Assembly: GCA_044869275.1 (NCBI GenBank)
Contig: JBIOXB010000130.1
Span: 1 to 64,000 of the forward strand
Direction of reading: 5' to 3'
DNA from: a bacterium
GTDB taxonomy: Bacteria > Zhuqueibacterota > Zhuqueibacteria > Zhuqueibacterales > Zhuqueibacteraceae
DNA: 64,000 nt
Within the stretch, counting starts at the first letter, position 1. Every line of letters starts with the position of its first letter. Of the stretch, positions 36,001 to 39,000 are shown piece after piece. Made by a program: the position numbers.

Positions 36001-39000
36001 GGCTCATGCGCATGATCATGGAATCGCTGAGAACACTCATCTGTGCAAGCGGCAAAGCCTTGCTGCAGCTCTTTGTCCTGCTTCCGGCAATGACATTATT
36101 TGAAGCCGCCTCCGCACAAGAGATGGAACCGGTCCTCGCATTTCCTCAACCCGGCTTGGACGATACCTCAACTTATCGCGGCTATATGACCCGGTTTTTC
36201 CGGGACCACGAGGGCAATGCTGTGCAAGTTTCCCTCAACCACAACCACGGCCGCATTGTGAATCTCTGGGCCGATGCTGCGAACGAATCCATCAGTTTTA
36301 CCGCGCGCGATGCTGATAGCCGGCCCGCAAAACTCATTTGGGGCTCTGAGAGGGCCGCGGCCCGGGGCGAGGGGAAGACGCGGCAGCTCGAGTATCTGCT
36401 CACCTCGCCCTCTACCGCAATCGATATCGGACATTTTCTGCTCTGCTCGATGCGTAAAGAGAGGGACTTCCAGTACTTTGAAAAGCATCTTCTGCCTTTT
36501 GAATCCGCGCCTTACCTCGAAAATGAATACACGGAGCTACTCGAAAATCTCGCGCGGCTGCCCGCTGCGGAACGGGCCCGCCATCTTGCCTTGTTCAGTG
36601 CCAAGAACGTGGAAGACCTGCGCGCGCGATTGCAACCTTCCATAAATTCTTCCGTGCGCGGATCAAGCTGGGTGGTGACGATCAAACAGCCGACATTCGA
36701 TGGCAAGAATCTTCTGGTGCTCGAGCTCGGCGCGGATCAAGCCCAAGCCACAGCTCGAGTCATCGCCAACAAAGTATCCATTCGGGGCAGAGACCATCAA
36801 CCGCTCCAGCTCCGGGTCAAAATCAGCACGGATTCGCCTGCTCTCACTCCACTGACGCGCGATAAGATTTTCAATCAAGACTTTTTTCATTTTTACGCAT
36901 GGGCCCGAGCGCAACACGACAGTGCTTTGCAAAAAGCAACTGCACAGAAAAGCGTTTCGGCCGGCGAGGGGAATGCCTCCGGCCCAAAAGAGCGCCTCCG
37001 TTTTCCGTGGTTGGAGCGCCAGATCAGAAGTGTCGAGTTGCTGAGTTATCAAGAAAAGCTGATGGCCGGGTTGCCGAATTACGCGACGTATTTTGGGCGG
37101 GACATGATGATGTCCGCGCTGATGATGGAGCCCATTTGGTCTCCCGCCATGCTCGAGCACGTCATCGCAAGTGTATTGCGAAAACTATCTCCTGCCGGCG
37201 AGGTCAGCCACGAAGAGGCACTGGGCGGGCAGGCGATACGCGAGAATGCGGCAGCATACAACACCCTGCTCGAAAAGTATTTCAACGACGGCCCTCAAAA
37301 TAATTCCCGATCCGATAGCCTGCTGGCGCCAGTGCGCGCCCTGCTCGAGAATTTGCAGGCGGTGCGAGAAAACTACCGGATGTTGGATGATGATTTCCAG
37401 CTCCCCGTGCTTGCCGGACGGTATCTCTCCCGTCGCGATCTCTCGCCCCAACGCCAGCGTGAATTCTTAGGCGCACTTGCGGCTAAAGATCGAAAAGAGA
37501 CACGGCTCGCGCTTTTGCTCAAGAATCTCTGGCATATTGCCCGTCTCACCCAGGCTTATGTGGCAGAACCGGTGGCAACCAACTTGGTCGGATTTTCCAG
37601 GCTTGATGAGAAACGTTGGTTGCCCGGAAGCTGGCGGGACAGCAATGCCGGCTATGCGAATGGCCGCTTCGCGATGGATATCAATGCGGTGTGGGTGCCC
37701 ATGGCCTTGGAAGCCATGCACACGATCCTGCCCAAGTTGCGCGAGCTCGGATTCGGGCCAGCGGATTTTGAAGCAATGGTGCCGGAAACGCGAGACCCTC
37801 CACTCCGCCAGTATATGGACCAGCCCGAGTCCTTGCCGCGGGCAGTGGCGGTTTGGCGCGGCGCCAGAAAACATTTTGAGGTTGAATTAGATCCCCAACA
37901 AACCGAGCAGCGAGTCAAAGCCAAACTGAATTGGTTGCCGGAGCCGGAGAAAGCTTATTGGAACACCGTCCTTTCACAAAGCCAGGCTGCGAAAAATGGC
38001 ATAGAATTTCTCGCCCTGGCGCTCGATGCCGAAGGCCAAGCCACTCCGGTGGTGAATACCGACCCTGCCACGATGCTCTTTCTTAAAAACTTCACCGCAG
38101 ATATTTTAGCAGGAGAAGCCACACCGGCGGGAGTTCTCAAGCTTGTCAATGTTTTGGTTCTGCCTTATCCCGTGGGATTGTTTGTGGAAAGTTCGGGGCC
38201 GTTAGTTGCCAATGATGCCTACGCCTCTTCCGAAGTTTGGGAAAGCTTCAAACGGGATCATTATCATTCCCCGCGGGTCGTTTGGGGTCGCGAGGTGAAC
38301 CTGGTGCTGCTGGGATTGTCAAAGCAGATGCTCGCCGCGTATGATGATCAAGGCCGCATGAAAAGCCCGATGCTGGTCACTTACGTTCACGAGCTGCGCC
38401 AGGCACTGCACACCATCGCCGCTGCGGTGGAAGCCTCCGGACTCAAACACAACGAGCTGTGGAGCTACAAAATTGAAAATGGCAAGCTTTTCCCGTCGCG
38501 CTATCCGGCCAGTTGCGACATTCAGCTTTGGAATCTGACCGACTTGGCCGTGCAGCACGCTTTGGCGCGTATGGCGAAGCTTTGATGCTAAAATTTCCTT
38601 GTCTGAGGAGTATTGATGACCTCCAGCTTGAAAATTCGCATCTCGCTGTTTCTGAATTTCTTCGTCTTTGCCATCCTCTTGAATACCGTGGGCATTGTCA
38701 TCGCTCAGGTCATCGTCGATTATCACACCAGCAGGCTGACCGCAGGCACGCTCGAAGCTTTTAAAGATCTTTCGATCATGGCCGTTTCCTTTTTGGTGGC
38801 CTCTTATGTTCCCAGGTTTGGATATAAAAGATCGATGGTGGCGGGACTCTTGGCGGTCACGCTTGCTTGCATGCTGATTGCGGCAGTTCGCGGTTTTTGG
38901 GTTGCGGCGGTGCTATATGTGGTCGTGGGCTCGAGCTTTGCCTTGATAAAAGTTTCCGTCTATTCGACGCTCGGTCTGATCACCGCCGGCCAGAAAGAGC

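Follow-up and report, generated by a model that had tools for sequence, protein, structure and literature searches.

Gene order and boundaries of the locus

The window analysed here is a stretch of 64,000 nucleotides from the genome of a member of the Zhuqueibacteraceae (GenBank assembly GCA_044869275.1, contig JBIOXB010000130.1, positions 1 to 64,000). From the genes of the window and their Pfam matches, the locus reads ECF sigma factor, FecR, TonB receptor, GH65, a gene for a protein of 857 aa, MFS and GH37 trehalase:

28611..29195, + strand: ECF sigma factor that probably regulates the locus (Pfam Sigma70_r2/r4_2)
29327..30403, + strand: FecR-type anti-sigma factor (PF04773, PF16344)
30627..33596, + strand: TonB-dependent receptor (Pfam); orthologues of approximately 50-63% identity recur upstream of homologues of the 857-aa gene
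33805..35979, + strand: exported GH65 of the hydrolase type (W373/D374, W421/E422, acid E504, base E649; L570-G571)
36012..38585, + strand: exported (alpha/alpha)6 glycosidase, 857 aa; its clan GH-G family is unnamed and a probable sister to GH176 (sequence, profiles, model)
36012..36116, + strand: residues 1-35, a probable signal peptide; in a simple hydropathy check a hydrophobic stretch runs up to A-S-A|Q, and homologues begin in a similar way
38613..39842, + strand: MFS transporter (Pfam); the homologue in Niveispirillum is followed by an MFS of the same family, and an SSF symporter often substitutes
39856..41742, + strand: Nth1-type GH37 trehalase (yeast neutral trehalase matched at E 6e-186; Pfam)
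41754..41797, + strand: 18-pair hairpin closing the operon, ahead of a convergent two-component gene (consensus scan only)

An earlier note on this DNA had listed the GH65, the 857-aa gene, the MFS transporter and a trehalase-like glycosidase in this order. The order stands, the last gene being GH37, with the sigma factor and FecR added at the head. The hybrid two-component regulator assigned to the same locus is convergent, on the opposite strand and beyond the 18-pair hairpin, and its membership of the operon is unlikely. It was rejected as a regulator of the operon on account of its strand and because only weak look-alikes (25-29%) were seen, in 5 of 80 loci. The receptor had been called Oar-type, a name without support, as the Pfam and NCBIfam scans gave no Oar model; in a PDB search with the receptor, generic plug domains were the only matches. 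Promoter-like matches in the locus were at chance level (7 observed, 7.2 expected).

The ORF at 36012-38585 encodes 857 aa without an internal stop. A GGAGG is located 9 nt upstream of the ATG at 36012 and 3 nt upstream of an alternative ATG at 36006. A signal-like stretch was absent from the N-terminus of the GH37 trehalase in the simple hydropathy check.

Homologues, fold and family placement

Scans of the 857-aa protein agreed with the previous statement that it is without a Pfam (E<=0.01) or NCBIfam match, and a single-sequence PDB search gave nothing below E 1. The reported 2,761 homologues at 1e-30 were right in order of size, although the exact figure was not reproduced (2,726 of 8,000 scored candidates at E<=1e-3). 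The best 120 homologues, the query counted, showed 49-69% identity, the query itself aside, and two of these 120 carry a Pfam domain, PF06439, as had been noted. With the barrel only, the search returned 728 representatives at 50% clustering. No glycosidase model matched the shared domain in a Pfam scan of 45 homologues, and an NCBIfam scan of three homologues gave none at E<=1e-10. The approximately 170 invariant columns described previously were the product of a narrow alignment; across 76 diverse members, 22 are invariant. The family is present in 14 of the 151 genomes of its own phylum, and many proteobacterial members bear the label 'Lipoprotein'. A FastTree tree of the homologues was used for describing clades only. 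In titles and the starts of abstracts, with subscription journals outside the coverage, no description of the family was found.

The beta-sandwich, like the (alpha/alpha)6 barrel, was again modelled with confidence (AlphaFold2, 76-row alignment; pLDDT 94.7, pTM 0.92), and 7vma_A was again the best structural match (Foldseek E 2.9e-10; VIA-align Z 29.5, rmsd 4.4, 502 residues aligned; next match Z 22.9). This alignment spans residues 55-857 of the model, covering the beta-sandwich at the N-terminus as well as the barrel, and HHalign also reaches into the sandwich. The predicted model has the clan GH-G fold, with VIA-align Z values of 22-29.5 to GH176, GH100 and GH63, and GH37 structures rank low (Z 19.8). 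The GH100 neutral invertase (6ttj; Z 22.9, rmsd 3.7, 363 aligned), the GH63 enzymes YgjK and glucosidase I (8e3j; Z 22.4, rmsd 4.0, 391 aligned) and GH37 have the pattern of Asp acid, Glu base and Asp fixer found in the 857-aa family, but lack a match at the sequence level, and their +1 subsites are completely unlike the H/E type (10.64898/2026.07.01.735942).

The description of the protein as GH133-like could not be retained, as GH176 was founded on 7VMA, TgAMY of Thermococcus gammatolerans (10.64898/2026.07.01.735942), and the profiles favour GH176-type over GH133-type proteins. A profile of 76 family sequences had 7vma as its sole match in the PDB (E 8.6e-6). HHalign of the family against GH176-type proteins gave 98.4% (E 5.6e-15, 448 columns), with FGRD, HE, WxDS, YH..W, EL and QxW aligned, versus 5.3% (E 0.007) against a GH133-type control alignment of 9 rows, of which 4 were degenerate paralogues. 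Proteins with PF06202/PF12439, the C-terminal domain of glycogen debranching enzyme, are taken by us to be GH133 amylo-alpha-1,6-glucosidases. PF06202 was absent from the target and from 45 homologues, and family members reached at most 7.5 bits on the GH133-type profile. The likeness to GH133 lies in the barrel (7ekw; Z 19.9, rmsd 4.0, 397 aligned) and in the GRD, WxD and YH..W motifs.

On the GH176-type profile, TgAMY scored 509 bits, the 857-aa family 4-33, GH133-type proteins 15-66 and YgjK 33; the best BLAST match between family members and GH176-type proteins was at E 0.04 for a database size of 1e9. The N-terminal domain PF14742 (GDE_N_bis), taken as the marker of GH176-type proteins, was absent from the target and the 45 homologues. 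It was not found in the 151 genomes of the phylum either, so that the GH176-type controls were drawn from genomes of Gemmatimonadota and Myxococcota. One protein (L127) has PF14742 and matches 7vma at E 8e-89.

The existence of a large unannotated family of (alpha/alpha)6 glycosidases, distinct from the named families and set in an alpha-glucoside locus, is thus supported. Judged by sequence profiles, it is a separate family of clan GH-G, nearest to GH176 and set apart by its scores; this placement follows the HHalign link to the GH176-type, yet members score below GH133-type proteins on the GH176-type profile. Neither the fold nor the chemistry is new in kind; the family is unnamed. Compared with GH176, which has the same sandwich and barrel, the structural identity is 16%, and the 857-aa family differs by its probable signal peptide, insertions of helices within the barrel, the invariant E402, N558 and D684, and a conserved TBDR/GH65/trehalase context.

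Predicted active-site residues and the GH65 neighbour

The active site of A8F5, the GH176 alpha-1,2-glucosidase of Arthrobacter humicola, comprises R286, D287, H335, E336, W425, D427, H566, W571, E611, Q634 and W636 (10.64898/2026.07.01.735942). The same 11 residues, H/E pair included, recur in the same order in the 857-aa protein as R363, D364, H400, E401, W541, D543, H752, W758, E815, Q838 and W840, each in at least 291 of 293 homologues; these are the full-length proteins covering both ends among 300 of 600-950 aa. The acid, the base and the fixer are present in 292-293 of these 293, down to approximately 25% identity. The mapping is a profile alignment at 16-19% identity, and the spacing from E815 to Q838 (23 residues) equals that from E611 to Q634 in A8F5. 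The main positions are:

37098..37103, + strand: R363-D364 with the 'fixer' Asp, in the motif YFGRD (R286/D287 in A8F5); 293/293, aligned to GH176 FGRD
37209..37217, + strand: H400-E401-E402, H/E corresponding to the A8F5 subsite +1 pair H335/E336 (profile alignment, conservation)
37632..37640, + strand: W541-R542-D543, D543 the proposed general acid (A8F5 W425/D427); D in 292/293, aligned to GH176 WKDS
38454..38456, + strand: E815, proposed general base (A8F5 E611); 293/293, profile alignment

By this alignment D543, E815 and D364 fall at positions equivalent to the Asp acid, Glu base and Asp fixer of clan GH-G, and the catalytic residues, previously left open, can be assigned provisionally. 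Family members also have the invariant residues E402, Y455, D459, N558 and D684. In the consensus lines the H-E pair is common to the GH176-type, and the GH133-type has P-N there. H335/E336 were named as likely contributors to the kojibiose preference of A8F5, which splits selaginose into glucose and trehalose and does not cleave trehalose (10.64898/2026.07.01.735942). TgAMY has the same residues, and yet maltodextrin and starch were its reported substrates in indirect assays (10.64898/2026.07.01.735942), and the H/E pair is for this reason not a proven marker of linkage.

The neighbouring GH65 had been described as phosphorylase-type. Its nearest match is FjGH65A, a kojibiose hydrolase (E 5e-94), and like that enzyme it has M360 and G607/A608, not the Lys, two Ser and His of a phosphate site, together with the hydrolase base E649. 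With FjGH65A and human PGGHG it shares W/D (-1), W/E (+1), a Glu acid, a Glu base and the lack of a phosphate site, and the W-E pair of kojibiose- and nigerose-active enzymes is retained. The kojibiose-hydrolase set W-E-T (+1) and W-D-K-Q (-1) is nevertheless incomplete, with T, K and Q lost: FjGH65A has K538/Q539, T407 and W473 where the neighbour has L570/G571, Q437 and G505. FjGH65A also reportedly serves branched dextran (PMC10316084), and among the neighbours scanned here there was no dextranase. The replacement of the normally invariant Lys-Gln of subsite -1 by L570-G571 is read from alignments, since a single-sequence fold of the GH65 had a pLDDT of 34. It breaks the rule of a fully conserved subsite -1 given in the GH65 review and makes the enzyme a candidate for a new specificity.

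Gene neighbourhoods and probable substrates

Among 80 genome loci of homologues, GH65 was present in 28, GH37 in 15, either in 37 and neither in 43; among 80 metagenome loci of the distant clade the counts were 17 for GH65, 11 for GH37, 55 for a TonB receptor and 56 with neither GH65 nor GH37, as judged within the flanks, many contigs being short. Both main clades have trehalase and GH65 as recurring neighbours, and a TreA-type GH37 adjoins the homologue in 11/80 and 9/80 loci of the two sets. The order is sigma-FecR-TBDR-homologue-halogenase-like-TreA in Novosphingobium and GH65/HAD fusion-TBDR-homologue-MFS in Niveispirillum, and three minimal loci (L117-L119) hold a receptor, the homologue and a sugar symporter only. 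Of the 14 genomes of the phylum with the family, 2 have a GH65 of the same type and 6 an Nth1-type trehalase (locus trehalase as query), and the GH65 and trehalase partners are optional. All 14 homologues longer than 1,500 aa are fusions with GH65 and one homologue (P0146) is a fusion with a TreA-type GH37 trehalase, which suggests complementary rather than redundant roles. Other neighbours were GH13 (6 loci), GH97 and GH15, and in the distant clade GH36 (17/80) and GH127 (11/80); these point away from alpha-1,2 linkages.

The 857-aa protein is best explained as an exported (periplasmic) inverting exo-alpha-glucosidase, a predicted activity to which we give a probability of roughly 0.8. Its location, inversion and residue roles, taken together, are very probable, and glucose would probably occupy subsite -1. 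D364 would anchor O4/O6 of the terminal glucose, D543 would protonate the glycosidic oxygen, E815 would activate water, and H400/E401 may bind the sugar at +1, as happens in A8F5, a kojibiose hydrolase. The most likely substrates, at somewhat less than even odds, are predicted to be oligosaccharides that are alpha-1,2-glucosylated or have a trehalose core (kojibiose, kojioligosaccharides, selaginose-type glucosyl-trehaloses). As to the order of steps, we infer that the TonB receptor would import a small alpha-glucoside and signal via FecR to the sigma factor, the 857-aa enzyme and the altered GH65 would shorten it within the periplasm, the MFS (or an SSF/ABC) carrier would import the products and the cytoplasmic trehalase would then split the trehalose core. 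A second alpha-1,2-glucosidase would be redundant were the GH65 already one.

The same inverting machinery might prefer a bond other than alpha-1,2 between glucoses, as in nigerose, isomaltose, alpha-1,6-glucosyl-trehaloses (the isobemisiose series) or glucosyl-glycerol/glycerate osmolytes, and the odds are clearly, if not heavily, against this. Members of clan GH-G have subsite -1 in common and diverge at +1 (10.64898/2026.07.01.735942), the family has its own invariant residues listed above, alpha-1,6-glucosyl-trehaloses occur in fungal ascospores (PMC4371660), the Atlas has an ascomycete cluster at 0.93, and GH13, GH97 and GH36 neighbours exist. The H-E pair shared with the GH176-type, against P-N in the GH133-type, speaks against this reading; so does the absence of dextranase and GH31 among 120 further neighbours scanned (60/84 and 60/91 clusters). 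That the 857-aa protein is itself the periplasmic trehalase, or hydrolyses a trehalose analogue, in place of TreA would fit the minimal loci, the recurrence of trehalase as a neighbour and the locus GH37 without a signal-like N-terminus, next to which a periplasmic trehalase would not be redundant. Homologues are however found beside TreA-type GH37 and fused to one, A8F5 with the same residue set leaves trehalose uncleaved, and the GH37 structures rank low, so that we regard this as improbable.

A GH133-like debranching enzyme for the alpha-1,6 branches of glycogen or starch, the frame of the earlier note, would agree with the JGI label 'glycogen debranching enzyme' on 2 of the 120 listed homologues, the alpha-1,6 activity reported for TgAMY, the GH13 beside 6 loci and the glucan phosphorylase and GH57 that adjoin the homologue at one locus. 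It is very improbable in view of the HHalign and profile values, the missing PF06202, the lack of regular glycogen-gene neighbours and a separate GH133-type gene elsewhere in the same genome; the TgAMY assignment has moreover been questioned because the pocket is closed at the bottom. Hardly credible is a role without catalysis, as a scaffold or sugar-binding protein serving the GH65 partner: the frequent GH65 fusions and the 'Lipoprotein' labels would suit it, but the catalytic residues are kept almost throughout the homologues and the gene is often present without GH65.

With the exo-alpha-glucosidase reading, a large family would be added to clan GH-G with its catalytic residues already assignable. 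A far more speculative proposal, and a rather unlikely one, is that the locus represents a periplasmic route, widespread and so far undescribed, by which alpha-1,2-oligoglucosides and oligosaccharides with a trehalose core are broken down, and that two activities in it are new: the 857-aa family as exo-alpha-1,2-glucosidase, and a GH65 that, without the O2/O3-binding Lys-Gln, would take substituted glucose at -1 and release disaccharides or cut within the chain, actions ascribed to no GH65 in the accessible part of the family review. If true, the thousands of homologues would make such sugars a common carbon source, counter to the A8F5 paper, which regards kojibiose hydrolases and what they act on as rare (10.64898/2026.07.01.735942). 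Few enzymes act on alpha-1,2-glucosides, and little is known of the natural substrates of these. Under stress, cyanobacteria produce alpha-1,2-glucosylsucroses (PMC9909042), and oligosaccharides based on trehalose are made by several microbes (PMC4371660). Family members are encoded by bacteria that can be cultured, in the genera Xanthomonas, Luteimonas, Novosphingobium, Niveispirillum and Gemmatirosa.

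A large family adjoining GH176

The predicted exported (alpha/alpha)6 glycosidase encoded at 36012-38585 (+), here called the target, belongs to a real, large and probably new family of clan GH-G that adjoins GH176 and has an unusual GH65 partner; its fold and chemistry are of familiar types. The literature search found the family nowhere described, although it may already have a CAZy number. On translation the reading frame gives 857 residues free of stops, with a ribosome-site-like GGAGG 9 nt 5′ of the start and a signal-like N-terminus ending in A-S-A before Q. It is single copy in the source genome G000 (Zhuqueibacterota, KSB1).

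No match was found in Pfam or NCBIfam, nor among PDB sequences searched with the target alone, whereas 2,726 of 8,000 scored candidates were homologous, as the earlier note's large unannotated family would have it. A barrel-only search gave 728 representatives (50% clustering). The distant-clade profile matched 3,217 of 8,000, which may overlap with the 2,726, including proteins of Xanthomonas, Luteimonas, Pseudoxanthomonas, Steroidobacter and Caulobacterales. In a FastTree phylogeny of 56 rows, the KSB1/Gemmatimonadota clade (~840 aa, including the target) was split from the remaining members, within which a proteobacterial clade (~680 aa) was nested. An ascomycete look-alike cluster in the ESM Atlas (score 0.93, 645 aa, 67 members, the carbohydrate-binding domain PF10645 in 24%) is a possible fungal branch. 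One protein of 5,313 aa (P0229) carries the family domain at residues ~2515-2846, and a homologue in another genome (L088, G089:C254:3003-5489) is interrupted by one TGA stop.

The target model, built from 76 diverse rows (pLDDT 94.7, pTM 0.92), was closest to 7vma_A in Foldseek (E 2.9e-10) and in VIA-align (Z 29.5, rmsd 4.4, 502 aligned; runner-up Z 22.9), and 7vma was the only PDB sequence found with the family profile (E 8.6e-6). It is TgAMY of Thermococcus gammatolerans, in the accessible text of 10.64898/2026.07.01.735942 (journal version PMC13671375) the founder of GH176, a family grouped there with clan GH-G; the alpha-1,6 assignment of TgAMY is doubted there. Two control alignments, both small and taxonomically narrow, were compared: 14 PF14742 proteins of GH176 type (profile score for 7vma 509 bits; row L123 from the unpublished genome G158) and nine PF12439/PF06202 proteins matching eukaryotic debranching enzymes. 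We take the latter to be GH133. Between these limited sets, HHalign joined the family to the GH176 type at 98.4% (E 5.6e-15) and to the GH133 type at 5.3%, and the two types to each other at 99.6% (E 1.8e-23); with the GH176-type profile, family members scored 4-33 bits and proteins of GH133 type 15-66. Cross-scores and HHalign agree, and GH176 is therefore closer to GH133 than to the target family. Judged by sequence membership, the family is outside both, yet GH176-like in its predicted working. The proposal of a new family thus survives these profile scores, with newness probable, but 'closest to GH133' has to give way to GH176, the family founded by the nearest structure.

The operon and its altered GH65

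The operon runs, on the + strand, ECF sigma, FecR, TonB receptor, GH65, target, MFS and GH37.

33805-35979, +, GH65 enzyme
36012-38585, +, target
39856-41742, +, GH37, a bacterial Nth1-type (yeast) trehalase that carries the Ca-binding motif PF07492
41754-41797, 18-pair hairpin at the operon end

The GH65, TonB receptor, MFS and trehalase-like genes of the locus first described are thus retained, whereas the two-component regulator lies beyond the hairpin on the − strand, convergent. The GH37 matched yeast neutral trehalase at E 6e-186; across the phylum, 15 of 151 genomes carry a close match to the GH37.

The GH65 is closest to the kojibiose hydrolase FjGH65A (E 5e-94) and human PGGHG. Because the acid E504 and base E649 are present and the phosphate site is absent (residues as given in the accessible part of PMC8626586), it is of hydrolase type and not, as had been supposed, phosphorylase-type. 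It retains W421/E422, and residues 570-571 are without the Lys-Gln of subsite −1, which PMC11442529, in the part available, calls 'fully conserved' in GH65 and binding O1/O2 and O2/O3 of the −1 glucose. KQ[APS]D was absent from all 41 hydrolase-type GH65s adjoining family members (one frameshifted and one cut short) and from all 14 fused GH65s, and present in both phosphorylase-type neighbours. Gly occupies the Gln position in most altered GH65s. This subfamily is, from its sequence, a candidate for new specificity, and may already lie within the several uncharacterised GH65 subgroups reported in the accessible portion of PMC8537180.

Elsewhere, partners were counted in samples with many short contigs and non-independent kin. 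Genome matches numbered at least 600; among the best 80, GH65 occurred in 28, GH37 in 15 and either in 37, besides SSF (27), sugar ABC (20), SusC (16), a GH13 cluster (6) and GH15 (5). The best 80 of 376 distant-clade metagenome matches had a TonB receptor in 55, GH65 in 17, GH36 in 17, GH37 in 11, GH127 in 11, a halogenase-like gene in 8 and MFS in 6. The order in Novosphingobium is sigma, FecR, TBDR, homologue, halogenase-like gene, TreA, and in Niveispirillum LacI-type regulator, GH65/HAD fusion, TBDR, homologue, same-family MFS; the Burkholderia homologue is without such neighbours and that of Gemmatirosa has only an SSF gene 3′. Each of the 14 homologues above 1,500 aa is fused to GH65; there are also one fusion to a trehalase and two to PF06439. 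The family is present in 14 of 151 genomes of its own phylum; two of the 14 have the altered GH65, adjacent in both, and six a close Nth1-type trehalase, at most one gene apart in five. One of these genomes (G014) is unpublished, and so is G158 (locus L049). By these counts per locus and genome the partners are therefore frequent yet optional, and the minimal unit is receptor, family gene and symporter.

The tryptophan-halogenase-like gene lies 3′ of the homologue in the eight distant-clade loci (L155, L167, L176, L178, L186, L193, L194, L199) and in Novosphingobium (L002). GH127 and GH36 recur beside homologue and altered GH65 in that clade (L173, L177, L184, L189, L192, L198, L200, L206), hinting at galactosylated or arabinosylated substrates. 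GMC oxidoreductase, Gfo/Idh/MocA and AP_endonuc_2 genes or a PF06439 fusion, presumably parts of a 3-ketoglycoside route, were found near members (L033, L028, L013, L138, L168, L177, L192; P0090, P0108).

Predicted active site and possible substrate

In A8F5, the GH176 alpha-1,2-glucosidase of Arthrobacter humicola, kojibiose is bound by R286, D287 (fixer), H335, E336, W425, D427 (acid), H566, W571, E611 (base), Q634 and W636, according to the accessible text of 10.64898/2026.07.01.735942. Profile alignment placed R363, D364, H400, E401, W541, D543, H752, W758, E815, Q838 and W840 of the target opposite these, each of them conserved in no fewer than 291 of the 293 homologues spanning both ends (from 300 of 600-950 aa), and base E and Q are 23 residues apart in both enzymes. 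The residue set supports a predicted inverting alpha-glucosidase with the terminal glucose at subsite −1; that the target is non-catalytic is scarcely credible.

Most likely, a small alpha-glucoside would be imported via the TonB receptor, and in the periplasm the target would cleave off its terminal glucose with inversion. The altered GH65 would act on a bond beyond the target's reach, and the cytoplasmic trehalase would complete breakdown of a trehalose core. We put an alpha-1,2 preference at about 0.45. The H/E pair is a +1 contact which the authors of the A8F5 work, in its accessible text, tie to kojibiose preference, and A8F5 splits selaginose into glucose and trehalose (10.64898/2026.07.01.735942); TgAMY, however, has identical residues and its assigned activity is in doubt, which calls for caution. 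Another small alpha-glucoside as substrate is a sizeable but lesser possibility. Of natural candidates, alpha-1,2-glucosylsucroses are made by cyanobacteria (PMC9909042) and trehalose-based oligosaccharides are known from fungi, whitefly, Mycobacterium and Sinorhizobium (PMC4371660), as far as the accessible parts of these papers go. No invertase was found among the neighbours scanned, and a trehalose core is therefore favoured over a sucrose core. The trehalose-based oligosaccharides of Sinorhizobium are alpha-1,2-linked. That the target is itself a trehalase would suit its trehalase-bearing loci, is set against the kojibiose-type residue set, and is doubtful; a debranching enzyme is more improbable still. 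GH133-type consensus lines have P-N in place of H/E. Distant-clade proteins bear the names 'hypothetical' or 'Lipoprotein' and, twice among the 120 listed, 'glycogen debranching enzyme'.

Other genes in the genome and window

A second GH133-type gene of G000 (C213; L006 1468-3597, −) has GRD changed to GRE and WMD to WMN, as in L109, L112 and L113, and is probably a catalytically dead paralogue; it is kept in several KSB1-type genomes, with an intact copy elsewhere. Further genes of the window are as follows.

12011-15093, −, Amidase_2 joined to an N-terminal region of membrane type, then small membrane and coiled-coil genes; reminiscent of a lysis-like cassette but free of phage genes
15520-24376, −, one run of genes for an OmpA-domain protein, two exported proteins without annotation (378 aa and 908 aa), FecR and a CHASE2 adenylate cyclase
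27522-28370, −, sigma-like protein with a weak region-4 match only, divergent from the locus ECF sigma
49452-52094, +, 880-aa GH63/MGH1-like glycosidase, 8 kb 3′ of the operon
53500-55964, −, unannotated 373-aa probable lipoprotein, 5′ of a TraF_2-type outer-membrane protein gene
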